Source: Candidatus Woesearchaeota archaeon (lineage in GTDB: Archaea > Nanobdellota > Nanobdellia > Woesearchaeales > GW2011-AR9). From it: a stretch of 64,000 bases of DNA. Shown here one piece after another: positions 6,578-61,306 of this stretch. The notes beneath the pieces were generated by a model that saw only the letters and a list, made by a program, of their open reading frames with translations, made no database searches and was not told the origin of the DNA. The translations under genes were made by a program, and so were the position numbers. Numbering within the stretch: position 1 is the first letter of the stretch; the number at the start of each line of letters is the position of its first letter. Where the stretch lies: contig JABIJM010000008.1 in the NCBI GenBank assembly GCA_018655525.1, positions 20,836 to 84,835 on the forward strand. The letters run 5' to 3'.

Positions 6578-6908
6578 GTAGTGGTAGCAGAAAGCGTAGG
6601 GTTTTGAACCCAGGAAAGTCCGCCCATTGAGTATCATGGTTACCTTTGAAAGAAGGGTGGGGAAATCCCACAGCTCTGGATTAGAAACGACACGTCCTAT
6701 AAAATTGGAATGATTGGAAGTCCTAATGGCGAAATTATTTGAGAAAATAATGAGTTAACTCCTTGACGTCTTTATAGGGAACGATGAAACGGCGAATCTT
6801 AACCAATGCAAGTCAGTTTGACGCTTAGTAGAATGCTTTCATGGATCATCGCAATCTTTTAAGGTTGTTTGGGTCCAACAAAAGGTGGCTTATGCTGCCC
6901 TACCAACT
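6578..6908 (+). ncRNA. rnpB: RNase P RNA (archaeal type)
   Basis: Conserved P4 5' strand AGGAAAGUCCGCC (6612-6624) and P4 3' strand ACAAAAGGUGGCUUAU (6878-6893). The GGUGG/CCGCC pairing is compensatory. A terminal helix pairs UGGUAGCAG at 6582-6590 with CUGCC..CUACCA at 6895-6905. No long ORF on the + strand; only antisense ORFs overlap it. Confidence 0.6.
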
Positions 6909-26020: not shown

Positions 26021-26365
26021 TCAACCCTTAAACCCAGATTTCTCTGCAAGTTGTTGCGTTGTAAAGACACCAGTTACTTTTGTTCCATCTGCAAATTGCC
26101 ATGTTGGATAAGAAGTGATTCCTTCTTGAATACAGGTTGGTGTTTGGGCCTTTCCATCAGGAGTAGAACATTCTACATAATTGATTTTCTTAAAACTTTT
26201 TCCGAGAATTGCTTTTTGTTGGTTGCACGCAGAGCACCAAAATGCACCGTACATCAATACACCTTCTTTTGTAAGGTGTTCAGCAAGAGCATCATTCTTT
26301 CCCGTACATCCTGATAATACAAGTAAAGAGATGATTCCAATAATTAATAGTATTTTTTTCATCAT
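26021..26365 (-). CDS. Thioredoxin-like lipoprotein (extracytoplasmic thiol:disulfide oxidoreductase)
   Basis: Lipobox LSGCTG. YGAFWCSAC CxxC motif and SYPTW motif, as in VKOR-associated Trx-like domains. Confidence 0.6.
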   Translation of the reverse strand: MMKKILLIIGIISLLVLSGCTGKNDALAEHLTKEGVLMYGAFWCSACNQQKAILGKSFKKINYVECSTPDGKAQTPTCIQEGITSYPTWQFADGTKVTGVFTTQQLAEKSGFKG

Positions 26366-26376
26366 AGTATTTTCCT

Positions 26377-28554
26377 CTATAACTTTTTTCTTTTTAATAA
26401 TAGTGAATTTGTAATCACACTTACGCTACTTGCAGCCATTGCGCCGCCTGCTAGCATAGGATTTAGTAACCATCCGGTCCATACATATAAAACTCCTGCA
26501 GCAACAGGAATGCCTAAAGTATTGTAGAACAATGCCCAAAACATGTTTTGTCTAATTTTAGCCATCGTCAATTTACTTAATTTTATTGCTTTTGGAACGT
26601 CTAATAAGCTGTCTTTCATTAAAACAATGTCTCCTGTTTCCATTGCGACATCTGTACCTGAACCCATGGCAATACCTATGTCTGCTTGTGCTAATGCTGG
26701 TGCGTCATTGATCCCATCGCCAACCATTGCTACTTTACCTTTTTGTTGTAGTTTTTTAACGTAATTTGCTTTATCTTCTGGAAGAACTTCTGCAAACACA
26801 TTCTTTATTCCTGCTTTTTTTGCGATGGCATGTGCTGTTCGTTCATTGTCGCCGGTGATCATATATGTTTCAATGTCAAGTTCTTGTAGCATCTTAATTG
26901 CGGTAGGAGAATCTGCTTTAATCTCATCTGCAACTGCAATTATTCCTAAAAGACTCGTTCCTTGTGAAAGAACCATGGTTGTTTTTCCTTCTTGCTCTAA
27001 TGAAGTTATTTTAGAGTTAAGAGGAGTTAAGTCTACATTCTTTTCTTTCATTAATTTGGGATTTCCTAAATAATATTTTTTACTTCCAATCTTTGCTTCT
27101 ACGCCTTTTCCGACAATTGCTTTGAATCCCGTAATGTTTTTCCAGGAAACTTTTTTAGATTTTGCTTCTTCCACAATTGCTTCTGCAAGAGGATGTTCGG
27201 AATTCTTTTCGATACTTCCAGCAATTTGTAATACGTCTGATTCTTTGATTCCTTTTGCAACTACGACATCAGTTACTTCGGGTTTTCCTTTTGTAATTGT
27301 TCCAGTTTTATCGAATATAACATATTTTAATTTATGAGCTGTTTCTAATGCATCTCCACCTTTAATTAAAATTCCTTGTTTCGCTCCTAACCCTGTTCCT
27401 ACCATGATGGCAGTTGGTGTTGCTAGTCCTAAAGCACACGGACATGCAATGACAAGAACTGCAACTGCAGCAATTAATGCAAATCCTACAGCTGCACCTA
27501 CAACAAGGTTCCAAATAAGGAAAGTTGCTACGGCTATTAAAATTACAATTGGCACAAAATAGGAAGAGATTTGATCTGCAAACCTTTGAATTGGCGCTTT
27601 CTTTGTTTGTGCTTCTTCAATGAGTTTTACAATACGTGAAAGGGTTGTTTCTGATCCTACATGTGTTGCTTTGAATGTGAAACTTCCGGTTTTGTTTATA
27701 GTTGATCCGATTACATTATCTCCTTTCTTTTTTTCTGTAGGGATACTTTCACCTGTGACCATACTTTCATCAATCGCAGAATGGCCTTTTACAATCATCC
27801 CATCAACAGGAATTTTTTCGCCTGGTTTTACAATTACAAGATCTCCTTTGACAACAGTATCAATAGGAATTTTGATTTCTTTTCCATCTCTAATAACAAG
27901 TGCTGTTTTTGCACCCAATTTCATGAGTTTACTAATTGCTTCTGACGTTTTGCCTTTTGCAATCGCTTCAAGATATTTTCCTAGAATTACAAGCGTGATT
28001 AATACAGCAGATGCTTCAAAATATTGGTGGCCTTGTGCTCCAAGTAAAACAACATACACAGAATAAAAATACGCTGCACTTGTACCCATTGCAATTAATG
28101 TATCCATATTAGAAGTTTTATTCTTTAATGCTGCCCAAGCACCTACATAGAATTGTTTTCCCACATAGAACTGAATTGGTGTTGCTAAAGCCCACATGAT
28201 ATAATCTTGAAATGGAATAGGGTTTTTCATGAAAAACATGCCTAAAATAAGAGAAGGGATTGCAAGAATTGCACTAAAGAGGACTTTATTTTTGAGATTA
28301 TTCAATTCTTTTTTACTTTTTTCTTTTTCCTGTGCTAGGTCTTTTACAAAGTGACCTTCATAACCTTTATCTTTAATAATTTGTAATAATCCTTCTTCTG
28401 AAATGTTCTTTGAATTGAAATCAATTGCTGCTTTTTCTGTTGCAAAATTAACTGTAGCTTGTGAAACTGCTTCATGTTTCTCCAAAGCTTTTGAGATAAT
28501 TTTGGTACAACTAGCACAATGCATGCCGGTTATTTTAATTGTTGTTTTCGCCAT
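26377..28554 (-). CDS. copA: Copper-translocating P1B-type ATPase
   Basis: N-terminal HMA domain (GMHCASC), TM CPC motif (ACPCALG), DKTGTIT phosphorylation site, GDGINDAP hinge. Confidence 0.85.
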
Positions 28555-28564
28555 ATTTATTTCC

Positions 28565-28951
28565 TCATTTTGAATTTTTCACCATCTTGGAACATTCTTT
28601 GCATCCTGTTTTATGTTCAAATGCATCTCTTAGGATACACCAACAGAAATTTGGTGATAATTGGAAGTATTTTTCCCTTCCTTTTTTTTCTGAATTTACA
28701 ATCCCTAAGGAATGTAATAATTTTAATTGGTGAGATATTGCAGATAAGGTTACATTATCCACGCTTTTGTGAATCTGAGTTACGTTTTTTGGGCCGTCCA
28801 TGATGCTTACCAGCATCTTTAACCTCGTTTCATCTGCTAAACTTGAAAATAAATGTAATGCTTTATTATAATCTCTCTTCACGATAGTTGAATAGTTGCT
28901 CAAGTATTTAAATGTATTGGTGATTTTTAATAATTTTGAGCTGCGACCCAA
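28565..28951 (-). CDS. ArsR/SmtB-family metalloregulatory transcription factor
   Basis: wHTH ([17 protein letters not shown]) with a C-terminal Cys cluster (CWC...C..C). The upstream gene overlaps its 5' end by 25 nt. Confidence 0.65.
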
Positions 28952-29256
28952 CGATCCATTAATATTAACATAGTATCTTCCAATAAAGTGATTCTTGCCT
29001 CATAAGTTCCTTTTGGAGTAATGCCAAATGAAGATTCCATCAGTTCTATTTTTTTTATTGTATCTTTAATTTCTTGATCCGGAAACCATTTTGGATCCAT
29101 TCCAATTTCCAATAATTGGGAATCTGAAGATAAGGCTTTCATTTGTAAAGTATGTGCATAAAGGAGATTTACTCTAAAACTTGTATCTTCATCAATGTTA
29201 TTTGAAGAACATGCTGTAAACATTAATAAAATAAAAATAAAAAATACTTTTTTCAT
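28927..29256 (-). CDS. Lipoprotein of unknown function
   Basis: Lipobox FTACSS. 109 aa. Confidence 0.4.
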   Translation of the reverse strand: MKKVFFIFILLMFTACSSNNIDEDTSFRVNLLYAHTLQMKALSSDSQLLEIGMDPKWFPDQEIKDTIKKIELMESSFGITPKGTYEARITLLEDTMLILMDRWVAAQNY

Positions 29257-29262
29257 TTTAAA

Positions 29263-30687
29263 TTACTGAGGGCCACCACAACCACAACCACCACTTGCAC
29301 CACAACTGCTTGCAGGTGGTAGATCAATTGCATTTAAAGCGCCAGTAATTTCATTTTGGTCAACAGTATCTTGAACAATAAATGCCCCTGGAATCATACC
29401 CATCCAACAACTCCATGAGATTGTACCGGTTTCAGTTGGCGTAAATTCAATGGTTTGAGTCCCTGGTTTGATTGGAAAGTTTAACCCATATTTAGGCACA
29501 CTAATAGCATTATTACATCCATTAATTTCTTTTCCTTCAATAACCCATTTTACTGGAATGCCTTTTTGTAGTACAAATTTATCTGGACTCCACCCGTACC
29601 TATTAACTTCCATATTTATGATTTGGTAGCCGTCTTTCAGCTCAATAGCATTTCCTGAATTTGAGTTACTATCTCCAAGAACGTTAAATCCCGCGGTTAA
29701 TGAATTGTAATCATATCCTGTTCCAGTTAATGTAAGACCGCGATTCACCATAATTAATCCTAAAAAGATTACAATGATTGCAGATGCTTTCAAAATTTTA
29801 TGTGTTGCTTTCCCACTTAAAAAACTTGTAAGGTAACCAAAGCCAAGTAATACAGGCAAAGTTCCTAAGCCAAAAATGAAAAGGAGTTTAGCTCCTTCAA
29901 ACATGCTTCCAGTTCCTGCTGCCATAATATAAATGGCTTGCAATGGTCCGCATGCAATCATTAATCCATTAAGTAATCCTATTACTAATGGGCTGTTTTT
30001 ATGAGCTCGTGCTTCTTTACTTGTAAAACGATTGATAAATTTCGGAAATCTAAATCGTATTTTTCTAAGTGCAGGAAAAATATTTAACATTTTTAGTCCG
30101 AATAATACAAGGAATGCTCCCGCAATAATTCCTGCGAGACCACGCATCATTGGTGTAAATGCAAAGATGCTTCCAACCAATCCAAAAAGCGCACCAATTA
30201 TTGTATATGAAAGCGTTTTTCCAATTGCATACGATAAATGGAGATAATGTGGTTTCTTTCCTTCTTTTGCACCTTTCGTGGTGTAAGATACAACAAATCC
30301 ACCACACATACTAATACAATGGAATCCGGTCAATAATCCTACTACAAAGAGAAGTCCGTAACCCATGTTTTGACTAATCGTTGGAAGGTTGATTGAATCA
30401 ACATATTGTAAAATGAAATATCCTAGGACAAGAATTCCAATAATTGCAAATGTCCACCCAACATAAGATTTTTTGTTTGAAGAAGTATCACAAATATATC
30501 CTTTTTTCTCAATGATATTTTTGATTTTTGCAAAACTTGTTTTCTCTTCATCAAAATCTACGGTTGATTTCTCAGTTGTGTAATCAACATGGAAGGAATT
30601 GATTCCTTGCAATTTATGAACTTGACGAGAGATGATTTTCTCACAACTTTCGCAAGTCATGCCTTTTGTAGTGAAGGTTTTTTTCAT
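29263..30687 (-). CDS. HMA domain – DsbD-like multi-TM – cupredoxin-like domain fusion protein (putative heavy-metal handling)
   Basis: N-terminal HMA (GMTCESC). TM core with paired Cys (HCISMCGG, ACGPLQ). C-terminal soluble beta domain with SWSCWMGM and a terminal CGASGGCGCGG. Confidence 0.55.
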   Translation of the reverse strand: MKKTFTTKGMTCESCEKIISRQVHKLQGINSFHVDYTTEKSTVDFDEEKTSFAKIKNIIEKKGYICDTSSNKKSYVGWTFAIIGILVLGYFILQYVDSINLPTISQNMGYGLLFVVGLLTGFHCISMCGGFVVSYTTKGAKEGKKPHYLHLSYAIGKTLSYTIIGALFGLVGSIFAFTPMMRGLAGIIAGAFLVLFGLKMLNIFPALRKIRFRFPKFINRFTSKEARAHKNSPLVIGLLNGLMIACGPLQAIYIMAAGTGSMFEGAKLLFIFGLGTLPVLLGFGYLTSFLSGKATHKILKASAIIVIFLGLIMVNRGLTLTGTGYDYNSLTAGFNVLGDSNSNSGNAIELKDGYQIINMEVNRYGWSPDKFVLQKGIPVKWVIEGKEINGCNNAISVPKYGLNFPIKPGTQTIEFTPTETGTISWSCWMGMIPGAFIVQDTVDQNEITGALNAIDLPPASSCGASGGCGCGGPQ

Positions 30688-30902
30688 TCTACTTGATAAT
30701 CTCCTTCTGCTTTAATCGTTTCTTTAATTTTTTCCAAAGATGTTTTGGATTCATCAAATTCTACTTCAGCTGTACCTAAATCATAATTAACATCTACCTT
30801 TACGTTAATATCTTCTAATGCATCTTCAAGAAGCATTTTGCAACTTTTGCAATGCATCCCTTTAATTTTTAATGTTTGTTTCATCTTATCCCTCTTACGC
30901 AA
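30684..30902 (-). CDS. copZ: Copper chaperone CopZ (HMA domain)
   Basis: 72 aa with the GMHCKSC metal-binding motif. Confidence 0.7.
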   Translation of the reverse strand: MRKRDKMKQTLKIKGMHCKSCKMLLEDALEDINVKVDVNYDLGTAEVEFDESKTSLEKIKETIKAEGDYQVE

Positions 30903-31323
30903 ATCTATGCGCGCCTGCTGTTAACTCTGCTTTTTTAATGATAACATTTTTGTTATCTAAGGTGTGGCTCAAATATGATGGCCAACATCCATATCCTTTA
31001 TTTTTTGTCCCGAGTCCATCAATACTAAAAACTCGGCCACAATTATTACATTTAATATCATCTCCTTGTTGCATATAACCTTTAGATCCTCCACAAACAT
31101 CACAAGCATCAAATGCCGTTCTTATTGATCCGTCGGTTCCTTTTACTACAAAATAGGTTACAGTAGTACCAGAAGTATCATAATCAAATTTCTGAACTTT
31201 ATCTGTGATACCATTTAATGGTATTTTAAATGATTTGTCATCTTCAGAGATTTGGATGTCTCCTGAAGAACATCCTGCAATTAATAATGTAAGTAAAATC
31301 ATTCCAATAATATATTTTTTCAT
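30895..31323 (-). CDS. Cys-rich lipoprotein (putative metal-binding, C..C..C..C zinc-ribbon-like)
   Basis: Lipobox IAGCSS. FDACDVCGGS...CNNCGRVF. Confidence 0.45.
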   Translation of the reverse strand: MKKYIIGMILLTLLIAGCSSGDIQISEDDKSFKIPLNGITDKVQKFDYDTSGTTVTYFVVKGTDGSIRTAFDACDVCGGSKGYMQQGDDIKCNNCGRVFSIDGLGTKNKGYGCWPSYLSHTLDNKNVIIKKAELTAGAHRFA

Positions 31324-31389
31324 ATTTCATGCCTCCTGATGAAGAAATAGTGGGTGAAACGCTTTATAAAAGAAGATGTGAAACTAGTT

Positions 31390-31857
31390 TCACTTTAGAA
31401 TAATAATGTTGGTCATGCCACGCCTTTTACGTTCAATAAGCCCTTTTCCTTCTAATTTATCTAAAACCCTGGACACTTTTACTTTACTTTGTTTTGTTTC
31501 TTTAATAAGATCACTTTGGTACACCGAACCATTTTCTCTAAGTACAATATTCATGATTATTCTTTCTGCTTCATCCAAGTTTTCTAAATTTGGTTGGTTA
31601 GAGAGTTTAGGTTTCTCTAAATTTTTTGACCCATCTTTAAGGAAAAAGGAAACTACGCCTCCAAGAACTACTAAAAGAGCAACTAACCCATAACTAATTT
31701 GTTTCTGAGTATCTAATGTTACTTGCATTGGGCAAGATACGCCATGTGTACAAGACATGCTCACAATTGTTTCTAATGCATTGTTAAAAGACATAACTAG
31801 GAAGAAGATAAGTACAGCGATTCCGATTACAAGGAATCCTACATGTTTATTTTTCAT
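31390..31857 (-). CDS. Membrane-anchored winged-HTH transcription regulator with a Cys pair in the extracytoplasmic segment
   Basis: TM helix at the N-terminus. CTHGVSCP. Second TM helix. C-terminal MarR-like wHTH (VSRVLDKLEGKGLIERKRRG). Confidence 0.5.
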   Translation of the reverse strand: MKNKHVGFLVIGIAVLIFFLVMSFNNALETIVSMSCTHGVSCPMQVTLDTQKQISYGLVALLVVLGGVVSFFLKDGSKNLEKPKLSNQPNLENLDEAERIIMNIVLRENGSVYQSDLIKETKQSKVKVSRVLDKLEGKGLIERKRRGMTNIIILK

Positions 31858-32875
31858 TGTGGTTGTGAATGTTTTTTCGCATTCTTTTGAGATATATTTC
31901 TAATTTCTTTTTAATATCTTCCTTTAATTTTGATTCAAAAGATAATTTTTCAATTCCATGATTCCAATCTATTTCTGGAATCCGAGTAAGTGAACCTACA
32001 AAATTTCTATTTGCAAGAGTTGCTTGATTTTCAATTCCTTGCGCTATCTCTGTTCCAAATAATTTTAATGCTTTAAATTTTGAAATGGAATTTGAACCTG
32101 CTTTTAATAATAAAGGAATTCTTTCTAAACGGTCCTCCCAGATTCCACATTGGATATCTAATGTAGGAAATTCTATTCGTAATTTTGCAATCCACCAAGC
32201 TTGTTGTTCTTCGCTTGGAATTTCTGCATTTTCAAAAGGTGTGCCTTTTTGTGGGATTAAACCATAAACATGAATTTTATGGATATCATATGTTGTAATA
32301 AACTCAGCTAATAAAGAAAAATCGGATTTTACTTCACCCATTCCTACAATAAAAGTCATTGCTCGTTGTAAATCAAATTCTTTAGAATTTTCAAACATCA
32401 TTTCATATGGTTTCAAAGGTTTAGAAGGACAAACTTGTTTATGTAAAATAGGATTTATTGTTTCTGTTGAACCAACAACACCTTTAATGTATGGTAAATA
32501 TCGTTGTAATAATAATTTAGATATTGGCCCTATTGAAAGCCAAATTTTTTCATTTGTGATTTCATAAATTGATTTTAAAAGAGATTCTAATTCGTCTGGT
32601 TTCAATGCACCAATGCCACCTGTAAAGAACCCTATGTCCCATCCAAGATGTTTACATAGAATAAATTCTGCTAAGATAGATGAGTTACTTCGTTTTGTTT
32701 CTTGGACTACTTTTTCTAAAGGTTGTGTGCTCATGTAACAAAATGTACAATCTCCAATCATGCATCCCCAACTAAAGAATACTGCTCGTTCAAAGGTTAC
32801 AGAGTTGTTGAAATTTTCTGTATAAATCTTTTGAGCTTGTTCTATTAGTTGTGGTGTTTCACTGAAATCTTCCAT
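31847..32875 (-). CDS. Radical SAM-like enzyme (non-canonical Cx4Cx2C cluster motif)
   Basis: FFSWGCMIGDCTFCYM near the N-terminus, followed by a TIM-barrel-like pattern. Confidence 0.45.
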   Translation of the reverse strand: MEDFSETPQLIEQAQKIYTENFNNSVTFERAVFFSWGCMIGDCTFCYMSTQPLEKVVQETKRSNSSILAEFILCKHLGWDIGFFTGGIGALKPDELESLLKSIYEITNEKIWLSIGPISKLLLQRYLPYIKGVVGSTETINPILHKQVCPSKPLKPYEMMFENSKEFDLQRAMTFIVGMGEVKSDFSLLAEFITTYDIHKIHVYGLIPQKGTPFENAEIPSEEQQAWWIAKLRIEFPTLDIQCGIWEDRLERIPLLLKAGSNSISKFKALKLFGTEIAQGIENQATLANRNFVGSLTRIPEIDWNHGIEKLSFESKLKEDIKKKLEIYLKRMRKNIHNHNEK

Positions 32876-32949: not shown

Positions 32950-33366
32950 ATGAAAGTAATAAGCGCATGTTTAGCTGGCATTGAATGCCGATATGATGGA
33001 AAAGGTAAGCCTAATTCTAAAATCATTGAGTTAGTTAAAGAAGGAAAAGCCATTCTTGTTTGTCCAGAACAATTAGGAGGATTGTCAACCCCAAGAACTC
33101 CTGCAGAACAGAAAGGAGACAAAGTTTTAACTACAAAAGGAGAGGACATCACTAAAGAATTTGAAAAAGGTGCAGAAGAAGCCTTGAAAATTGCAAAAAT
33201 GGCTGGGTGTTCAAAAGCAATCTTAAAGGCAAAATCCCCTTCTTGTGGATATGGAATGGTTTATGATGGAAGTTTCACAGGAACTTTAAAAGAAGGTAAT
33301 GGTGTTTTCGCTGAGCTTCTTAAAAAGAATGGATTTAAGATAATTACTGAAGAAGATTTAGTATGA
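32950..33366 (+). CDS. DUF523 family protein (TudS-like, 2-thiouracil desulfidase family)
   Basis: MKVISACLAGIECRYDG...ILVCPEQLGG, a conserved DUF523 Cys pattern. Confidence 0.6.
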   Translation: MKVISACLAGIECRYDGKGKPNSKIIELVKEGKAILVCPEQLGGLSTPRTPAEQKGDKVLTTKGEDITKEFEKGAEEALKIAKMAGCSKAILKAKSPSCGYGMVYDGSFTGTLKEGNGVFAELLKKNGFKIITEEDLV

Positions 33367-33412
33367 GATTTCTATAATACAATTTAAAAAGAACACCTCA
33401 AATATCACTTTT

Positions 33413-34669
33413 ATGAACAAATCAATAGAAATCATGGCACCTGCTGGATCGTACGAATCACTTATGGCTGCAATCAATGCTGGTGCGAACTCTGTGTACT
33501 TTGGGATTGAGCAGTTGAATATGCGAGCGAGAGCTGCAAATAACTTTACAACAGAAGATTTGAAGAAAATTGTAAAGATTTGTAAGGAACATAATGTGAA
33601 AACATACCTTACCTTGAATACAATTATGTATGATCACGATATTACGTTAATGAAGAAAATTTGTGATACAGCAAAGGAAGAAGGTGTAACTGCTGCGATT
33701 TGTAGTGATGTTGCTGCGATGTCCTATGCAAAAGAAATTGGCCTAGAAGTTCATATCTCTACACAAGCAAATGTCAGTAATTTTGAAACTGTGAAATTTT
33801 ATGCGCAATTTGCGGATGTTATCGTATTGGCACGAGAACTAACATTCAAACAAGTTAAACGAATAACAGAAAATATTGAAAAAGAACAAGTTAAAGGACC
33901 TTCAGGAAATTTAGTGGAGATTGAATTATTTATTCATGGAGCCTTGTGTGTCGCTGTTTCTGGAAAATGCTATATGTCTCTTGCAACGTACAATTCTTCC
34001 GCAAATAGAGGAGCATGTTTACAAAATTGTAGAAGGTCTTACAAAGTTATTGATGAAGAAACTGGCGATGAATTAGTTATTGATAATAAATATATTATGT
34101 CTCCTAAAGATCTTTGTACGATTGGATTTATTGATAAGATTCTAGATTCTGGTGTAAAGGTATTAAAGATTGAAGGAAGAGGACGTGCGCCGGATTATGT
34201 TCATACAACTGTAGGATGTTACAGAGAAGCTGTTGATTCTTATAAAGAAGGAACGTATACAGAAGAAAAAATTAATGTATGGACTAAAAGATTAGAGACG
34301 GTGTTTAACAGAGGTTTCTGGCATGGTGGTTATTATTTAGGAAAACAACTTGGTGAATGGAGTGGCATTTATGGTTCTAAAACAACAAAAGAAAAAAAAT
34401 ATCTTGGATTAGCAAAAAATTATTTTATGAAACCTAAGATTGCCGAATTTCAGTTAGAAGCTTTTGAAGTAAAAGTTGGAGATGAAATCTTAATTACAGG
34501 TCCTACCACTGGTGTAATTCAAATGAATATTGAATCTTTATTCAAAGATGAGAAAAAGGTAGATTCTGCTGTAAAAGGAGATGAAATTACGTTTCCAGTT
34601 TCTGAGAAAGTACGACCAAATGATAAATTATTTTTAATTGTGGATGTGAAAAATGACAAACCTAATTGA
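33413..34669 (+). CDS. Peptidase U32 family protein (RlhA/TrhP-like RNA hydroxylation family)
   Basis: N-terminal IEIMAPAGSYESLMAAINAGANSVYFG signature of the U32 family. 418 aa. Confidence 0.8.
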   Translation: MNKSIEIMAPAGSYESLMAAINAGANSVYFGIEQLNMRARAANNFTTEDLKKIVKICKEHNVKTYLTLNTIMYDHDITLMKKICDTAKEEGVTAAICSDVAAMSYAKEIGLEVHISTQANVSNFETVKFYAQFADVIVLARELTFKQVKRITENIEKEQVKGPSGNLVEIELFIHGALCVAVSGKCYMSLATYNSSANRGACLQNCRRSYKVIDEETGDELVIDNKYIMSPKDLCTIGFIDKILDSGVKVLKIEGRGRAPDYVHTTVGCYREAVDSYKEGTYTEEKINVWTKRLETVFNRGFWHGGYYLGKQLGEWSGIYGSKTTKEKKYLGLAKNYFMKPKIAEFQLEAFEVKVGDEILITGPTTGVIQMNIESLFKDEKKVDSAVKGDEITFPVSEKVRPNDKLFLIVDVKNDKPN

Positions 34670-34898
34670 ATTACGGAAAGAAATTGATGCAATTAATGAA
34701 CAATTAATGAGTTTGTTAGAAAAACGTATTGAAATTACAAAAAGAGTTATGAGTTTTAAGGATAAAGAAGGTATTGAGAGATATGACAAAATACGAGAAC
34801 AAGAAATTGTTGGGAAGCTATGCAATAATCATAATTTAGATAAAACATTTATTGAAAAAATAATGAAATTAATTTTTGAGGAAGCAAAAAATGCCTAA
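34653..34898 (+). CDS. Chorismate mutase (AroQ class)
   Basis: 81 aa. LRKEIDAINEQLMSLLEKRIEITKRV...RE.EIV matches the AroQ helix-1 pattern. Overlaps the U32 gene by 17 nt. Confidence 0.6.
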   Translation: MTNLIELRKEIDAINEQLMSLLEKRIEITKRVMSFKDKEGIERYDKIREQEIVGKLCNNHNLDKTFIEKIMKLIFEEAKNA

Positions 34899-35115
34899 AA
34901 TTGCGCATTACCGAGAAAAATGTATTGGATGTAATTCTTGTGTGGAGCAGGCACCAGATAGATGGAAAATTTCTGAAGCTGATGGAAAATCTATATTAAT
35001 TGGATCAAAAAAGAAAGGTGAAGTTTTTGTAACTGAGATCCGTATGGATGAATTAGAAGCAAATGAACGTGCTGCAAGAGATTGTCCTGTAAGGATTATT
35101 AAAATTCTAAAATGA
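34876..35115 (+). CDS. Ferredoxin (single [4Fe-4S]/[3Fe-4S] type)
   Basis: CIGCNSC...CP cluster-binding pattern. 79 aa. Overlaps the chorismate mutase gene by 23 nt. Confidence 0.6.
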   Translation: MRKQKMPKIAHYREKCIGCNSCVEQAPDRWKISEADGKSILIGSKKKGEVFVTEIRMDELEANERAARDCPVRIIKILK

Positions 35116-35639
35116 ACCCAAATAGATTCAAAAATCTTGTGGAGATTTGTCATAGAGAATGGTTAAGTAAATCTGTAGGAATTCCTTCTTCACATAAGTA
35201 TGGTGTAGATCTTCTAAGTGATGAAATTGGTATTGAACTTAAATCCAGATTACGAAGAAGAAATAAAAAAAATGAAGTTCTACAAGGAAACAGTCGCTTT
35301 GCAGTTCACGAATACCAAGTTCCAGGATTTCCAGAAGAACATCCTAATGTTGATTTATATTGGGCATTTCTTTTTTATGACCTTGGCATGTCTGTTGATG
35401 ATGTTCCTCCTTACTACACTCCTAGAGAAATTGAACCACATATCTCTGGAAGAGAAGCATGGTTTTTCAATTGGGAGTGGATTGATTCATTCCCTGTAAG
35501 TTATCCTAAAACTGGCCCTTATAGATATGTTGGGATAAAAGATTTTCCTGAACCTTCTCTTTGTGAGACATTAAAAGTTAATGAAGGAAGAATTTATTTT
35601 AATCCAGAATCAAATTTAAGAAAAAAATTAAAAATTTAA
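35112..35639 (+). CDS. Hypothetical protein (possible PD-(D/E)xK-like motif D..x..ELK)
   Basis: 175 aa. Overlaps the ferredoxin stop. No firm motif. Confidence 0.4.
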   Translation: MNPNRFKNLVEICHREWLSKSVGIPSSHKYGVDLLSDEIGIELKSRLRRRNKKNEVLQGNSRFAVHEYQVPGFPEEHPNVDLYWAFLFYDLGMSVDDVPPYYTPREIEPHISGREAWFFNWEWIDSFPVSYPKTGPYRYVGIKDFPEPSLCETLKVNEGRIYFNPESNLRKKLKI

Positions 35640-35644
35640 AAAAA

Positions 35645-36133
35645 TTATTCTACAATAATCTTTCCTTTCATACTGCCATGGCCTTCGCCACAAAATACAT
35701 TGCAAGAAAATGTATGAGTTCCAAGGGTATTCGCTACGAATTCTACGGTTTTTGTTTCACCTGGATTGAATTTAACATCAACATCAAATTCCTTTAATGA
35801 AATGCCGTGTGTAACATCTTCACTTGTAATTGTTAATTTAACGTTATCTCCTTTCTTTACTTTGATTTCTGAAGGGATAAATTCCCATTTCTTTGCAACC
35901 ATTGAAATTTCAACTACATTATAGTCCTCCGGCGGAATTAAAGGTTCTTCCATTTCATTTACTTCTTCTACAACCGTTTCTTTAGTATCTTCGTTTCCTT
36001 CTGTTGGCATTTCCGTTGTTGTGGGCTCTTCTGGCATTTCATAATCTGGAAAAGATGTTTCTTGACAACCTGAAATAACAAAAGAAAGAACCATAATAAT
36101 TCCAATTAAAATTACATTTATTTTTTTCATCAT
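35645..36133 (-). CDS. CuA-type cupredoxin lipoprotein (cytochrome oxidase subunit II-like domain)
   Basis: Lipobox ISGCQ. CuA ligand pattern H...C.VFCGEGH..M (VTHGISL ... FSCNVFCGEGHGSMKG). Confidence 0.6.
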   Translation of the reverse strand: MMKKINVILIGIIMVLSFVISGCQETSFPDYEMPEEPTTTEMPTEGNEDTKETVVEEVNEMEEPLIPPEDYNVVEISMVAKKWEFIPSEIKVKKGDNVKLTITSEDVTHGISLKEFDVDVKFNPGETKTVEFVANTLGTHTFSCNVFCGEGHGSMKGKIIVE

Positions 36134-57177: not shown

Positions 57178-58869
57178 TTAAAATCGTAAAACTTTAACCT
57201 CCCTTGTTTTGAGATTTACTACTGGAACTCGTCCGGGTTCTGGTTCATGACCTAATTTTTCTTGGAAGGAGGTCATACTTTGCCAACAACTTCCACTAAT
57301 CATTGTAATTCCTTTATAATTAGCAACAGAAGAATAATGGATATGTCCGGTAATTAAAAAATCTGGTACTTTTTTAATCAGTAAAGGATCTTCTTTATGG
57401 CCTGGATAATAAGGAGTTGATGTAAATGATGGAGCCATATGCCTTCGTTTAAGAAGGAATTTCATTATTAAGTCAGCTCTTTTATATCCTCCTCCATTTC
57501 GTATTGATTCTACATTTGCAACATAATAATCAAAACTATATCCATGATACATTTGAACATTAAATCCTTCAAAATCCTTTGTTTTTCCAATATTAATCAA
57601 TGCAGGATTTGTCACTAATTCTACATTTGGCAGTTCAAATAATCCTGGAACAAATTGTTGATAAAGTACAGGTTGAGGTTCAGCTAAATGTACAAGATCA
57701 TGGTTGCCTGGACAGATTATAATAGGAATGTGTGAAGGAATTCCTTTGATTAATTCTACAAATTTTTGATATTGTCCTTCAATTGTGGTGATAAATAATT
57801 CTTCTTCATGTCCAGGATAAATTCCAACACCATCTACTACATCTCCTGCAATGAAAATGTATTTTAAGTTACGTGCAATGTTTCGTTGTGCTTCGTTCCC
57901 TACATTTCCATTCGTCCATTCTATAAATTTTTTAAATGGTTCTTCTAAAAAATATTTTGAACCAACATGAATATCTGATAAAAAAATAACATGTTCTTCT
58001 TCTGGTCCTTTTTTCATAACATTAGTTGAAGGAATGTCAGGCCAGACTACATTTTCTGCAAAAATAATTTTATCACCCGTTACTCCTGAAATTCCAACTA
58101 CCTCGTCATAAACAAGGTCTTTACCATCTAAAAAAAGATCTTTTTTATTTTTTGAAATAAGAACTTTAATTTTTCCAGTGAAGTCTTCTAACGTCAACAT
58201 CAAATTTCCATTCTTTGTTTCACCAATTTCTTCGACAATCCCGATGATAGAAACATTTTCTCGTTCTTTTTTTTCAAGAACTCTACTTATAGAAAGCATA
58301 TTTTTTAATTCTTGTCTATTTCTGAGTATGTTTTCTAAAAACTTAAATCGCGATGTAAAGAAATGAGTGAAATCTGCAACTGTAAATTTGTGAGGTTTAT
58401 TTTCATAAGAAATTATAATTGTAACTGCTGAAGAGGGCTGAACAATATTTTGTGGTGACAATTCTAATTCTAAATGTTCTTTTTCTTTAAGTTCTTCAGG
58501 AGTGCCTAGATTTGTTTTTTGTGTATCTTCTAATTCAACTTCTAAACTACTGACATCTTGGTTACTTTTATGTTGAGGGACATCAATTGAAAGAGTTGAT
58601 GTTTTGAAACTCTGTAATTGAGATTGGTAAATGTCGTCATTTCTATCTTTTTCAGAATTTACACGCATTTCATCTACTTCATGCCAATCAACAAGTGAAG
58701 ATTCTTGTTTGATGACATCTACATAATCATCATTAAGTACTATTAAATCAGATTCTGTTTCTAATTTTTGACGTAAATTTTTGTCAAGGCCTTTTTGAAG
58801 TAGTTCTTCATTTAGTAAGATCCCTTTTTCGAACATTTCTTCTATTAATTTTTCACGGCTCGTTGTCAT
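57178..58869 (-). CDS. polB: DNA polymerase II (PolD) small subunit DP1
   Basis: C-terminal calcineurin-like phosphoesterase motifs (GDVVDGVG, GNHD, GHIH). N-terminal OB region. Confidence 0.85.
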   Translation of the reverse strand: MTTSREKLIEEMFEKGILLNEELLQKGLDKNLRQKLETESDLIVLNDDYVDVIKQESSLVDWHEVDEMRVNSEKDRNDDIYQSQLQSFKTSTLSIDVPQHKSNQDVSSLEVELEDTQKTNLGTPEELKEKEHLELELSPQNIVQPSSAVTIIISYENKPHKFTVADFTHFFTSRFKFLENILRNRQELKNMLSISRVLEKKERENVSIIGIVEEIGETKNGNLMLTLEDFTGKIKVLISKNKKDLFLDGKDLVYDEVVGISGVTGDKIIFAENVVWPDIPSTNVMKKGPEEEHVIFLSDIHVGSKYFLEEPFKKFIEWTNGNVGNEAQRNIARNLKYIFIAGDVVDGVGIYPGHEEELFITTIEGQYQKFVELIKGIPSHIPIIICPGNHDLVHLAEPQPVLYQQFVPGLFELPNVELVTNPALINIGKTKDFEGFNVQMYHGYSFDYYVANVESIRNGGGYKRADLIMKFLLKRRHMAPSFTSTPYYPGHKEDPLLIKKVPDFLITGHIHYSSVANYKGITMISGSCWQSMTSFQEKLGHEPEPGRVPVVNLKTREVKVLRF

Positions 58870-60065
58870 AGTTGTAATTCTTTTTCTAACATTTCTTTAA
58901 GTTTGATGATAATTCCTTCTTCTAATGAAAGATTGATTTCTCGAGTTCTCCCATAGCGTCCTTTAGAAATAATTTTTGCATTGATAATTCCAAGCATATC
59001 CAATTCTGCCAAAATATCTGAAACACGGCGTTGTGTTAAGATATTAAGATTAGATTTTTTACATAATGTCCCATAAATTTCATAAATTTCTCCTGTAAAA
59101 AATTGACGTTTCTGAGGACTAATCAACATGATTGCAAATAATACTAATTTAAACTGGCGTGGCTGATTCATTGCAGCGCTAATAAGTTTGTCAGATTCTA
59201 CTTTTCTTTCTGCAGCATCTAAATGTGTAATTTCAACTTGTCGTGAACCACTTCTCTCTGCTATTTCTCCTGCAACACGTAATAAATCTATTGCTCTTCT
59301 TACATCTCCATGTTCACGGGCTGCATAAGCTGAACATTTTTCAATTACACCTGTTTGAACAGTACCATCATTAAATGCAGAATTTGAACGGTTTCGTAAA
59401 ATTTCTTGAATTTGTAGAGCATTGTAAGGTGGAAAAATGATGTCTTCTTCCGAAAGACTACTTTTCACACGTGGATCTAAATTTTCTGCGAATATTAAAT
59501 TGTTAGAAATTCCAATTAAACAAATTTGTGAGTTTTTTAATTCTGCATTAATTCTCGTTAAATTGTAAAGAACTTCATCACCAATTTTTTTTGTTAATTG
59601 ATCTATCTCATCAAGAATAAGAAGAATAACTTGTTTTTCTTGGTCTAATAATTTGTAAAAGATATTATAAATTTCATCTGTTGGTAAACCTGTGGAAGGA
59701 ACATCCCTTCCAAAACTCTTGATTAATTGTGAAATTAGTCTATATTCTGTATCTGCTACACGTTTTAATTTACAATTTACATAGATTGGTTTTAACGCAA
59801 TGTTATTTTTAACTGCAATCTCCTTCATAGAATTCACAATACTTTTCATTGAAAGAGTTTTTCCAGTACCTGTTTTTCCATAAATAAACAAATTAGAAGG
59901 TTTTTCATTTCTAAGGGCAGGTGCTAGAATGTTTGCTGCTTCACTCATTTGTTCTTCTCGATAAATAACATTCTCTGGCATATAAGAAGATAGTAAAACA
60001 TTCTTATCTCTAAAAAAAGAATCCTGTTTAAGGTAATTTTCAAAAAAGTTATTGATTCCAGACAT
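58866..60065 (-). CDS. cdc6: Orc1/Cdc6 replication initiator
   Basis: AAA+ Walker A GKTGTGKT, Walker B LILDEID, C-terminal winged helix. The start codon directly abuts an ORB element. Confidence 0.85.
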   Translation of the reverse strand: MSGINNFFENYLKQDSFFRDKNVLLSSYMPENVIYREEQMSEAANILAPALRNEKPSNLFIYGKTGTGKTLSMKSIVNSMKEIAVKNNIALKPIYVNCKLKRVADTEYRLISQLIKSFGRDVPSTGLPTDEIYNIFYKLLDQEKQVILLILDEIDQLTKKIGDEVLYNLTRINAELKNSQICLIGISNNLIFAENLDPRVKSSLSEEDIIFPPYNALQIQEILRNRSNSAFNDGTVQTGVIEKCSAYAAREHGDVRRAIDLLRVAGEIAERSGSRQVEITHLDAAERKVESDKLISAAMNQPRQFKLVLFAIMLISPQKRQFFTGEIYEIYGTLCKKSNLNILTQRRVSDILAELDMLGIINAKIISKGRYGRTREINLSLEEGIIIKLKEMLEKELQL

Positions 60066-60066
60066 A

Positions 60067-60089
60067 GTGACCCCCCTATTTCCTATGGA
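60067..60089 (-). promoter_or_regulatory. ORB element 1 (origin recognition box)
   Basis: The minus strand reads TCCATAGGAAATAGGGGGGTCAC, matching the archaeal ORB pattern of a TCCAnnGGAAA dyad plus a G-string. Confidence 0.6.
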
Positions 60090-60471
60090 AAAATGTTTTT
60101 TGGTGAAAATGATCGTGCAACAAGAGTGTGTTGTGCAATCAGATCTTTGTTCGTTGTTGTTTGATTATGTTAAATTTCAATGTTAAATGTAGTTTTGAAC
60201 CACTCTTTCCCATAACCTACATTTCTGATGGAAACAATCCTATAAATAGTTATCGTTAGTAGGATTGGATGGTAACAGAATCTAGTATTAAGTATACTGT
60301 GAAGGAACATGTAGAGTGGAATTCATATTATTAAGTTTAAATCAAAGCAAAATAAATCAATTTAAGGGAGGTAAGATCATTTGTAAGGTAATTAAACAAT
60401 TTTAAGAATAAATTATATTATAAGGAAATTAAGAAGAGTTTAGATAATGTTACTCTTATTACACATATCCT

Positions 60472-60730
60472 TTATTATTATTATTATTATTTAGATATAA
60501 ATTTATTATATATATATAAGATAAATAAAAACATTGATTGGAATAACCTTTGAAATCTTCTTTAAAACTTAGAAAATTAAAATGAACTTTTTCACTTTAA
60601 AATCAATCAAAAAAAACAAAATCTTCAAAAACTTTTGTCGTCGTTAATTTATTATTATCTATATTGAAAATATATTATATATATATATATATAGTTATAT
60701 AATAATAATAATAATAATAAGAAGAAGAGA
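60472..60730. repeat. Cluster of simple-sequence repeats inside the origin region: (TTA)n, (AT)n, (AAT)n
   Basis: ttattattattattattatt at about 60472-60491, atatatatata at about 60508-60518, (at)8 at about 60677-60692, (aat)7 at about 60700-60720. Confidence 0.6.
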
Positions 60731-60928
60731 ATGAGTTAAGTGAATAAAATAAATGATGTTTAGGTTTACTTTCTTTTGAATTTAAGTTTAATGGTTATTT
60801 CTATTTGAAGTTAAGTGGGTATCTCTCTTAACTCAAATCATTTTTGATATTTCATTTGTTTTACTCATAACGAATGTGTTAAGCGCAATTCCTTTCTCTT
60901 TGAAACATAATTCTACTTAAAATAATTC

Positions 60929-60953
60929 TCCATGAGAAACGGTGGTCTGTGAC
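60929..60953 (+). promoter_or_regulatory. Degenerate ORB-like element 3
   Basis: TCCATGAGAAACGGTGGTCTGTGAC. Confidence 0.4.
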
Positions 60954-61079
60954 CTTTTATTACATTTAATCCATATTATTTTTGATTAACATATGGATTA
61001 TAATTGTTTAGGTATGTTTTATTTTAATAGATATCTTTTTTATCTTTTTTATACTTATTTTTTTCTGAATTATTAAATC

Positions 61080-61102
61080 TCCATAGGAAATGAAGGGGTC
61101 AC
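61080..61102 (+). promoter_or_regulatory. ORB element 2
   Basis: TCCATAGGAAATGAAGGGGTCAC. An inverted copy of ORB1 with 20 of 23 nt identical. Confidence 0.6.
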
Positions 61103-61306
61103 ACTCATATGGCATGTTCATTTAACATTAATGTTCATATTACAAAATATAGTTTTGTGAATGTTTAAAAATTAAGTGTGTTAACTGCAATGCCCTTTAT
61201 TAGAGGAGAATAAGGGGGAATTACATTTATTTAATTATTTAATGTAGTTCATTTTAGGTTAAACTCAAATCCGAAGTTTTAAATACCTTTATCTTATTGG
61301 AATTGT

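Follow-up and report, generated by a model that had tools for sequence, protein, structure and literature searches.

A conserved U32-chorismate mutase-ferredoxin operon in DPANN archaea, a candidate system for prephenate-dependent RNA hydroxylation

The 64-kb stretch of DNA analyzed here (the window), from a member of Candidatus Woesearchaeota (DPANN), holds a conserved three-gene unit encoding a U32-family [4Fe-4S] enzyme, a minimal AroQ-class chorismate mutase-like protein (CM) and a single-cluster ferredoxin (Fd). We think it probable that this U32-CM-Fd operon carries out an O2-independent, prephenate-dependent RNA hydroxylation, most likely of tRNA U34, with the ferredoxin as its dedicated partner. 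The observations behind this reading are the identities, motifs and fold of the proteins, the conservation of their gene order, and a linkage of related bacterial genes to trhO.

Results

A three-gene unit conserved in DPANN archaea

The genes for the U32 enzyme (33413-34669, + strand; 418 aa; PF01136), the CM (34653-34898, + strand; 81 aa; PF01817) and the ferredoxin (34891-35115, + strand; 74 aa; PF13459/PF13370, with a CxxCxxC...CP motif) lie downstream of a gene for a DUF523/TudS-like (2-thiouracil desulfurase) protein (32950-33366, + strand; PF04463, E 8e-47). The original prediction had described these as a four-gene cluster, and all four reading frames are present on the + strand where it had placed them. 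The 17-nt overlap that it gave for the U32 and CM genes is exact, whereas its 23-nt overlap between the CM and ferredoxin genes holds only with an upstream TTG start (34876) and shrinks to 8 nt with the ATG at 34891. The latter start is the one taken in the NCBI record for the ferredoxin (MBT3836075.1, 74 aa), and every homologue begins "MPKI...".

The U32-CM-Fd order was seen in eight distinct DPANN contexts, and because their flanks are all unrelated (among them DNA ligase, DEAD helicase/L15e, radical SAM/PCNA and DUF523) the layout is not due to chance. Overlaps between the triad genes are mostly 4-29 nt. The predicted coupling of a U32 protein, a CM and an electron carrier is thus upheld as a conserved, translationally coupled unit with the CM between the U32 protein and the ferredoxin, and the functional unit is most likely a three-gene operon with its own promoter. 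On reading the sequence, a TATA-like box (ATTTAAAAA; 33382-33390, + strand) is seen 22-31 nt 5' of the U32 ATG, and a similar TTTAAA-type box is found at the same spacing to U32 in six of the seven triad loci with DNA, including locus L081, where DUF523 is also upstream. Since the genome is 68% A+T, we regard this box as a weak candidate for the archaeal promoter of the triad.

The genes on either side fall outside the unit. DUF523 had been counted as a member, a claim that we abandon: among 165 loci it adjoins U32 just twice, in the window and in the most closely related locus, L081, and the promoter-like box stands between the two genes. Downstream, a 175-aa ORF (35112-35639, + strand) overlaps the ferredoxin stop by 4 nt. 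It has no match in Pfam, NCBIfam or PADLOC and no homologue in any of the 165 loci, forms a singleton cluster in a collection of 15 billion proteins, and bears no homology to the unknown ORFs found after the ferredoxin in loci L082 and L084. We therefore rejected it as a fourth component; it is probably co-transcribed with the triad while lying outside the conserved module. A single radical SAM partner was also considered and rejected, as the PRK06267-like and Fer4_12-type radical SAM neighbors are mutually unrelated.

A U32 subfamily distinct from TrhP, RlhA and UbiU/UbiV

The U32 protein matches PF01136 with 226.3 bits (GA 22.4; E 4e-67) and contains a CX6CX15CX3C motif (C179/C186/C202/C206), which is the [4Fe-4S] ligand motif of U32 proteins (PMC11574389) and has identical spacing in all 162 full-length family members. 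Its architecture consists of a TIM-barrel catalytic domain followed by a C-terminal beta-barrel (U32_C), with the match to PF16325 being weak. In an AF2 model, whose Fe-S loop is of low confidence, the N-terminal domain finds 5D88 (the MK0906 TIM barrel) as its top Foldseek match (E 2.5e-7), and residues 326-411 superpose on 4HE5/4HE6 at 1.0-1.2 Å. Only the fold search succeeded here; querying PDB sequences with the U32 protein gave no match at E <= 0.01. Within DPANN, sequence identity is 70-80%; it is about 60% with Bacteroidota proteins that carry the annotation "collagenase/PrtC", and in the tree the group forms a separate clade, set apart from TrhP by a long branch. Judged by sequence, the U32 protein belongs to a distinct U32+U32_C subfamily common to DPANN archaea, CPR bacteria and Bacteroidota, which is presumably Kimura's PepU32#4.

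Equivalog cut-offs, identities of 25-33% and the tree together rule out orthology with TrhP, RlhA, UbiU or UbiV. TrhP (E. coli YegQ, acting on tRNA U34) is also an Fe-S protein with the U32+U32_C architecture, and its BLAST alignment spans the full length; by analogy, the window protein may share its proposed reaction and its dependence on prephenate. The two are nevertheless only 25% identical, and the window protein scores 184.3 bits against a TrhP equivalog cut-off of 534 (NF011996). TrhP orthologues have been reported in bacteria only, and no adjoining ferredoxin or CM has been described for TrhP, none being annotated beside trhP in E. coli K-12. RlhA (E. coli YdcP, which makes 23S ho5C2501) is the best pairwise match among the E. 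coli paralogues, at 33% identity over the catalytic domain. Its Cys residues are conserved, it depends genetically on prephenate, and it is defined by a DUF3656 domain C-terminal to U32 (PMC5727448); whereas RlhA is 653 aa long with DUF3656, the 418-aa window protein has no DUF3656 match and carries U32_C instead. UbiU and UbiV share the CX6CX15CX3C [4Fe-4S] motif, but the UbiU-UbiV(-UbiT) system of anaerobic ubiquinone hydroxylation employs two U32 paralogues and an SCP2 lipid carrier on a prenylphenol, in contrast to the one U32 protein with a beta-barrel, the ferredoxin and the CM found here. Identity to UbiU is 28% (168 bits against an equivalog cut-off of 440), and similarity to UbiV is not significant (49.5 against 275 bits). 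The U32 protein is thus not close to RlhA and TrhP, the enzymes that the original prediction had pointed to, although the Fe-S motif and a redox and tRNA context are retained.

The phylogeny had been proposed as a check on the original prediction, with a placement among proteases counting against it. The U32 protein does cluster with a subfamily annotated as "PrtC collagenase", yet its Fe-S motif is invariant. This raises the question of whether it is a genuine collagenase-like peptidase with unrelated housekeeping genes as neighbors. Its nearest bacterial relatives, at about 60% identity, include Porphyromonas proteins so named (the P. catoniae "collagenase") as well as Parabacteroides proteins; P. 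gingivalis PrtC is described as sharing its U32+U32_C architecture, and a recombinant Veillonella PrtC homologue cut collagen in an assay (PMC12768972). However, a peptidase would not account for the four-cysteine motif in 162 of 162 members, the dedicated ferredoxin, the trhO linkage or the insertion of a CM. In addition, no hydrophobic signal peptide is seen on reading the U32 N-terminus (MNKSIEIMAPAGSYESL...), collagen is an implausible substrate for a marine DPANN archaeon, and U32 proteins have no known protease mechanism according to Kimura et al. We consider a peptidase extremely unlikely, and the ferredoxin, trhO and CM context favors a redox hydroxylase over a secreted PrtC-type protease.

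The ferredoxin as a candidate redox partner

The ferredoxin scores above GA for both PF13459 (Fer4_15; 46.1 bits, E 8e-12) and PF13370 (Fer4_13; 35.3 bits), and resembles the mono-cluster ferredoxins 1DWL, 1IQZ and 1F2G. Its CxxCxxC...CP motif is found in 102 of 103 homologues. A ferredoxin gene lies directly 3' of U32, within 150 nt, in 80 loci, and nine further loci have a CM between the two. In a reciprocal test that used the ferredoxin profile alone, all four ferredoxins directly follow U32, and all other neighbors differ. The U32-Fd pair is far commoner than the triad, being found in DPANN, CPR and many Bacteroidota. Many DPANN and CPR U32-Fd loci, such as L082 and L003, contain no CM, which is therefore either dispensable or encoded elsewhere. 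We propose that the U32 enzyme has the 74-aa ferredoxin as its dedicated redox partner, most plausibly as an electron acceptor, though it could instead serve as an electron donor. The ferredoxin YfhL and ho5U are reportedly the subject of work published by Lauhon in 2019.

Linkage to trhO and the candidate substrate

In 24 of 27 Bacteroidota loci (Flavobacteriia-type), trhO lies directly upstream of U32 on the same strand, with a gap of -31 to +18 nt (trhO was called with NF001133, at 267 bits against a cut-off of 170). Its product is an O2-dependent tRNA U34 hydroxylase that stands beside TrhP in the known dual ho5U pathway, and the trhO-U32-Fd operons therefore suggest tRNA U34 as the substrate of the U32 enzyme. 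The RNA substrate that had been predicted gains independent support from these operons. The linkage occurs in a single bacterial lineage only and may represent one ancestral arrangement, and for the DPANN enzymes tRNA U34 would be a substrate extrapolated from bacterial orthologues that are about 60% identical. Probes for CmoA and CmoB found no match in any locus.

The enzyme may instead hydroxylate a target other than U34, such as a conserved rRNA cytidine (compare RlhA and C2501), some other RNA, a nucleotide or a small aromatic metabolite. Its catalytic domain is slightly nearer to RlhA (33% over 276 aa) than to TrhP (25%), identities of 70-80% within DPANN would fit any universally conserved target, for example the peptidyl-transferase center, and we know of no description of xo5U34 in archaeal tRNA. 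For the uncharacterized U32 subfamilies, Sakai et al. admit "RNA or other biomolecules" as targets. Set against this, DUF3656, the domain that defines RlhA, is lacking, TrhP shares the architecture and aligns over the full length, and the operonic linkage to trhO points specifically to U34. A quinone substrate fits poorly with the single U32 gene detected per locus by HMM screen, as UbiU and UbiV are a pair of paralogues, and quinone substrates are unlikely in DPANN. Altogether, a target other than U34 seems rather unlikely, and tRNA U34 is the substrate that we favor.

A shortened chorismate mutase-like protein beside the U32 enzyme

The CM matches PF01817 with 62.8 bits (GA 27; E 3.5e-17) but falls under every NCBIfam equivalog cut-off (for TIGR01791, 55.7 against 66.95). 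Residues R8/R25/K36/D45/R48/E49 correspond to R11'/R28/K39/D48/R51/E52 of EcCM; R25, K36, D45 and E49 do not vary among the seven triad CMs, and Arg11' is kept in six of them, being lost in locus L087. The protein is shortened in helix 3 and has no equivalent of the catalytic Gln88, a helix-3 position (Gln or Glu) that touches the transition-state ether oxygen: the alignment to 1ECM places A78 at Ser84, so that Gln88 would be residue 82, one past the 81-aa C-terminus. More generally, the U32-linked CMs lack the glutamine of an S-[K/R]-x-x-Q motif that aro-operon copies keep, and in five of them the chain stops a single residue before it.

The closest solved sequences are the fused AroQ domains 5GMU, 3NVT, 5J6F and 2D8D. 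The PDB matches 2QBV and 5MPV are the 90-aa AroQ of M. tuberculosis (Rv0948c), an enzyme with little activity by itself that its partner, DAHP synthase, activates. A small AroQ is likewise joined to a partner enzyme in Bacillus, Listeria and Thermus, where it is fused to DAHP synthase. In those cases the partner is the first shikimate enzyme, whereas the presumed partner here consumes prephenate and the CM has no Gln88 equivalent.

These features leave some room for a mini-AroQ that is not a working CM, being instead a degenerate AroQ-fold subunit that binds prephenate or chorismate or delivers it, active only in complex with U32, or devoted to another step such as assisting prephenate fragmentation. 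The systematic absence of the glutamine, the lack of Arg11' in L087, the scores below equivalog cut-offs and the reported absence of a chorismate supply from most DPANN MAGs all speak for such a protein. On the other hand, five or six of seven canonical active-site residues are kept even though the triad CMs are only 21-52% identical to the window CM, which argues for selection on a site of chorismate/prephenate type, and low activity may suffice for sub-stoichiometric use of a cofactor. We regard a non-working CM as doubtful and favor a CM that makes prephenate.

The genomic setting of the CM was also considered. No aro or prephenate-using gene was found in the 64-kb window or in 145 kb around eight triad loci (seven distinct triads) with probes for DHQ synthase, two EPSP synthases, chorismate synthase, DHQase II, shikimate dehydrogenase and prephenate dehydrogenase. 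The nearest CM relatives that are not U32-linked, which are more distant proteins of 95-100 aa, sit in ordinary aro operons and have EPSP synthase, chorismate synthase, DHQ synthase and prephenate dehydrogenase as neighbors. This fits the suggestion, made at the outset, that prephenate is produced here for the U32 enzyme rather than for aromatic amino acids. In the U32 tree the triads are confined to one DPANN sub-clade, and we propose that a CM was inserted into an older U32-Fd pair in one DPANN lineage.

A single insertion would also be compatible with a CM that serves residual aromatic amino-acid metabolism and stands between U32 and Fd as a historical accident kept by descent; some DPANN do encode a CM with prephenate dehydratase or dehydrogenase (PMC10266531). 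Such an accident is highly improbable, however, as the triad has been kept, with overlapping genes, while all flanks turned over, U32 diverged to about 70% identity and the CMs to 21-52%. It also sits badly with the empty aro surroundings and with the loss of Gln88 in the U32-linked CMs, unlike the aro-operon CMs. We therefore retain the view that the CM supplies prephenate to the U32 enzyme. Nothing encoded here makes chorismate, and the shikimate pathway is reportedly missing in most DPANN MAGs (PMC10936187). The lack of an evident chorismate source counts against our preferred reading, and the self-contained character that had been predicted for the module is only a possibility.

Discussion

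The hydroxylase activity, RNA substrate, direction of electron flow, CM activity and chorismate source that we infer for the U32-CM-Fd operon would fit together as follows. The U32 [4Fe-4S] enzyme would hydroxylate without O2 and draw the oxygen atom from prephenate, which is the O donor for UbiU/UbiV and is genetically required for TrhP and RlhA (PMC10990095, PMC5727448, PMC6599085). The target would be a pyrimidine C5 in RNA, specifically that of the tRNA wobble U34, to give ho5U. The ferredoxin would most plausibly take two electrons from the base before hydroxylation, and hydroxide from prephenate decarboxylation would then quench the base cation. The mini-AroQ would convert chorismate to prephenate beside the U32 enzyme, in a DPANN lineage that probably has no aromatic pathway of its own.

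The U32 "oxidases" are the sole enzymes known to use an organic O donor, prephenate, and no in vitro assay exists for them. UbiU/UbiV is the only system in which prephenate has been proven as the donor, and it needs an external electron acceptor; none has been named (PMC10990095), and no partner had been reported in the literature to mid-2026. The conserved U32-ferredoxin pair is thus a concrete candidate for the missing acceptor, and a natural three-gene operon that includes the proposed prephenate-making step offers a minimal system for reconstitution. The trhO-U32-Fd operons also provide a testable substrate hypothesis for a large uncharacterized subfamily that is still annotated as "PrtC collagenase" and so used in clinical metagenomics. 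Moreover, the U32-Fd system reaches CPR bacteria and the Archaea, where trhP orthologues are reported absent.

A more speculative possibility, which we advance only tentatively, would join these elements: as ultra-small symbionts, DPANN and CPR may share a bacterial-type ho5U34 system with Bacteroidota by horizontal transfer. In one Woesearchaeota lineage, an AroQ that lacks Gln88 would work only when bound to U32, making prephenate from host-scavenged chorismate and channeling it as the oxygen-atom donor, with the ferredoxin as obligate electron acceptor. If this were true, an organism without a shikimate pathway would import a shikimate-pathway intermediate solely for RNA modification, and xo5U-type modification would exist in Archaea.

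The U32 gene is paired with a ferredoxin gene

The four ORFs on which the original prediction was built are all real, and each has a strong family match: DUF523/2-thiouracil desulfurase (32950-33366, +; E = 8e-47), Peptidase_U32 (33413-34669, +; E = 4e-67), a CM_2-type AroQ chorismate mutase (34653-34898, +; E = 3.5e-17) and a single-cluster Fer4_15 ferredoxin (34891-35115, +; E = 8e-12). The U32 and mutase genes overlap by exactly 17 nt, as claimed. The mutase and ferredoxin genes do overlap too, but the 23 nt given for them holds only with an upstream TTG start (34876); the ATG at 34891, used by homologues and by NCBI's own 74-aa record, leaves 8 nt.

We collected 165 loci encoding U32 relatives (80 species-representative genomes, 80 metagenomes and five exact-protein look-ups) and screened them with iterated HMMs. 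A ferredoxin gene lies at most 150 nt 3' of U32 in 80 loci, follows an intervening chorismate mutase gene in another nine, and stands elsewhere within 5 kb in a further eight; 11 contigs end too soon to judge, and the three loci L082, L083 and L086 were scored as lacking the ferredoxin through an overlap filter, gene calls showing it in all three. A ferredoxin-profile search returned >5000 relatives, and in all four that we picked for their long contigs alone (Fulvitalea, Limibacter, Marinigracilibium and one DPANN contig) the ferredoxin gene was directly 3' of a U32 gene while every other neighbor differed. The two genes are therefore a dedicated pair, a partnership in which we place high confidence.

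At one DPANN locus (L093 7323-7885, on an 867-kb contig) a toxin-antitoxin-like insertion, judged by eye to be an RHH-type antitoxin with a PemK/MazF-like toxin, separates the two genes. Two Patescibacteria/Magasanikiibacteriota MAGs (L004 and L010) carry a U32-ferredoxin pair that shares 63-68% identity with its archaeal counterpart; their sequences branch with the DPANN clade, indicating either that the pair has crossed domains between ultra-small organisms or that these MAGs are mis-binned. The labels Methanosarcinales (L002), Gammaproteobacteria (L006) and Dehalococcoidia (sequence P0007) look like mis-binned DPANN contigs.

A chorismate mutase joins the pair in DPANN archaea

The predicted coupling of all three genes recurs well beyond the window. 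The order U32-mutase-ferredoxin is found there, at L081, L084/L085, L097/L169, L090, L087 and L001/L096, and on a JGI contig, making eight distinct contexts after duplicates are merged, with unrelated flanks (DNA ligase; DEAD helicase and L15e; radical SAM and PCNA; or DUF523). The genes mostly overlap or abut, by 17, 8, 4, 4, 11, -32 and 8 nt for U32 and the mutase. Of the seven triad loci with DNA, six have a TTTAAA-type box 22-31 nt 5' of the U32 start, and in two of these six DUF523 is upstream of U32. This suggests that the triad may have its own promoter, with the box as a candidate element; the evidence is weak because it was read by eye from an AT-rich genome (G+C of the window, ~32%).

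DUF523, proposed as part of the module, adjoins U32 at just two of the 165 loci, the window and L081, the window's closest relative, and we consider it a passenger. The same is true of a 175-aa ORF 3' of the ferredoxin (35112-35639, +), which has no homologue anywhere in the 165 loci and is a singleton in protein-collection clustering. It overlaps the stop codon of the ferredoxin gene (ATGA) and matches no family, and by eye its 'VDLLSDEIGIELKS' resembles a PD-(D/E)xK nuclease motif.

The closest solved sequences to the mutase are AroQ domains attached to DAHP synthases (Bacillus, Listeria, Geobacillus, Thermus). Seven triad mutases, 21-52% identical to the window copy, share invariant equivalents of E. 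coli chorismate mutase Arg28, Lys39, Asp48 and Glu52, and six of the seven have that of Arg11'. The canonical AroQ helix 3 terminates in S-[K/R]-x-x-Q (Ser84...Gln88); the U32-linked copies retain the S/N/A-K part, but at the Gln position have P, K or F, or stop one residue earlier, as do five, the window's included, that end in '...EEAKNA'. Because Gln88 is missing, the mini-AroQ may have weak activity or need activation by its partner. That it is non-catalytic or depends on a partner, a reading that overlaps our main model, is a minor though real possibility: the missing glutamine points toward it, whereas the conserved remainder of the active site speaks for a chorismate/prephenate-type site.

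A profile search with this mutase yielded only about 40 relatives. Those of 74-82 aa that we looked up are in triads; more distant relatives of 95-100 aa belong to typical aro operons, alongside EPSP synthase, chorismate synthase, DHQ synthase, DHQase and prephenate dehydrogenase. Probed with these aro-operon proteins, neither the 64-kb window nor 145 kb around triads yielded an aro gene, in keeping with the original proposal that prephenate is not made here for aromatic amino acids. We think it likely that the mutase feeds U32. An ordinary metabolic mutase that lies here by accident is an explanation that the recurrent triads leave very improbable. As to chorismate supply, a survey of DPANN MAGs found the majority without a shikimate pathway (PMC10936187).

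The U32 protein belongs to a separate subfamily

The NCBIfam models that score best on the window U32 are those of TrhP (184 bits against a cut-off of 534) and UbiU (168 against 440); it falls below both cut-offs and so is an equivalog of neither. In pairwise comparison with E. coli proteins, its match to RlhA (33% identity) is confined to the catalytic domain; identity is 28% to UbiU and 25% to TrhP over the full length, and UbiV shows no significant similarity. Among closer relatives, identity is 70-80% across Woese-, Pace- and Nanoarchaeota, 63-68% with two CPR bacteria and 57-62% with Bacteroidota, among them Porphyromonas, Parabacteroides and many Flavobacteriia. In a neighbor-joining tree without support values, these DPANN, CPR and Bacteroidota sequences form one tight family on a long branch away from TrhP, RlhA and UbiU. 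In the same tree, mutase-bearing loci fall in one DPANN sub-clade, within which the mutase was apparently lost at least once (L082), and the Bacteroidales branch has no adjacent ferredoxin.

A CX6CX15CX3C motif is present in 162 of 162 full-length family members. The AF2 model (mean pLDDT 75.8, poor only around the Fe-S loop) has an N-terminal domain matching the U32 domain of MK0906 (5D88) and a C-terminal beta-barrel that superposes on the C-terminal domain of a Geobacillus U32 protein (4HE5/4HE6) at 1.0-1.2 A and more weakly resembles EF-Tu. This architecture, U32 plus beta-barrel, is that of TrhP and differs from that of RlhA with its DUF3656 domain. Both domains are also found in P. gingivalis PrtC, and the Porphyromonas orthologue is named 'collagenase', so that the window protein very probably belongs to the PrtC-type subfamily, putatively the PepU32#4 of Kimura. 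Activity has been reported for PrtC homologues, as expected if the window U32 were a true collagenase; this reading is contradicted by the Fe-S motif and by the redox and tRNA context, and is most improbable. We consider it quite probable that the protein is a hydroxylase rather than a protease.

Gene neighborhoods point to tRNA

Among all genes within 4 kb of U32, a recurrent Bacteroidota neighbor of ~350 aa is TrhO (NCBIfam, 267 bits, cut-off 170), the O2-dependent tRNA uridine(34) hydroxylase; in 24 of 27 loci its gene ends -31 to +18 nt from the U32 start on the same strand. An RNA-modification role, as originally envisaged, thus gains support from these operonic orthologues. Two partly redundant routes to ho5U34 are known, through TrhO and through TrhP (PMC6599085), and a trhO-U32-ferredoxin operon is therefore what would be expected if in those bacteria the subfamily provided the anaerobic one. 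Sakai et al. made a similar kind of prediction for two other uncharacterised U32 subfamilies, not the PrtC-type one, and reported trhP orthologues in bacteria only. No CmoA or CmoB gene was found at any collected locus. For DPANN we regard tRNA U34 as the target only tentatively, at somewhat under even chances; a different substrate, such as the rRNA hydroxylated by RlhA, is less probable still, the trhO operons pointing to tRNA.

Other genes also recur near U32. In Flavobacteriia-type genomes, U32-ferredoxin is regularly followed, in the same orientation, by RicT/YaaT (NF041131, 258 bits), a PSP1-domain, Fe-S-containing regulator of RNA processing; 35 Bacteroidota loci show this, L147 (7968-9503) among them. 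A BioB-like radical SAM protein (PRK06267 'hypothetical protein', 273 bits, just below the 305-bit cut-off) is encoded near U32 in six DPANN loci: the window (31847-32875, -), L081 2472-3542, L087 4761-5978, where it overlaps the U32 start, L003 8278-9345, L090 1519-2601 and L001 34-591. This recurrence could reflect a functional link or mere shared synteny. An unrelated radical SAM gene (Fer4_12 + Radical_SAM, ~376 aa, without equivalog) is divergent and upstream of U32 in two DPANN contexts, L175 1076-2206 (-) and the JGI 3300072015 contig of sequence P0135. The window triad also lies in a metal-handling neighborhood (26021-31857 and 35645-36133) with a P-type heavy-metal ATPase with an HMA domain (26377-28554), two more HMA-domain proteins (29263-30687 and 30684-30902), an FtrD-like Fe-S protein (30895-31323), a membrane-anchored MarR/TrmB-type regulator (31390-31857) and a cupredoxin (35645-36133); a similar ATPase is near U32 in five DPANN loci.

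Other features of the window

The window is archaeal by its content: genes for RFC, PCNA, PolD, Cdc6, MCM and aIF2-beta were read from translations, and an archaeal RNase P RNA lies at 6578-6903 (+) (RF00373, 141.7 bits). ARAGORN detected no tRNA genes across the 64 kb. A gene-free stretch of 1.2 kb (60066-61306, 26% G+C) adjoins cdc6/orc1 (58866-60065). In it two 23-nt G-string elements in inverted orientation, GTGACCCCCCTATTTCCTATGGA and TCCATAGGAAATGAAGGGGTCAC (60067-60089 and 61080-61102), flank (TTA)n/(TA)n tracts (60472-60726); the stretch resembles a replication origin of archaeal type, with ORB-like boxes and an unwinding element.

Discussion

Prephenate is the oxygen donor of UbiU/V (PMC10990095; PMC11574389), and RlhA and TrhP have a genetic requirement for it. 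In the chemistry proposed for U32 enzymes, the substrate ring first loses two electrons, prephenate decarboxylation then supplies the hydroxide that quenches the cation, leaving phenylpyruvate, and the [4Fe-4S] cluster passes electrons to a 'yet unidentified electron acceptor' (PMC10990095; PMC11574389); reviews and literature to mid-2026 still do not name the redox partner. We propose that in this subfamily the partner is the 74-aa mono-cluster ferredoxin, that the mini-AroQ would provide prephenate at the U32 enzyme, and that the most likely target is tRNA U34. Taken whole, this picture is in our judgment somewhat favored.

The individual genes were already deposited under correct family-level names; in the literature we found no paper describing a U32-ferredoxin pair, a trhO-U32-ferredoxin operon, a chorismate mutase embedded in a U32 operon or a U32 hydroxylase system in DPANN. 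With these candidate partners, two open questions about U32 hydroxylases, their redox partner and their reconstitution in vitro, become direct experiments.
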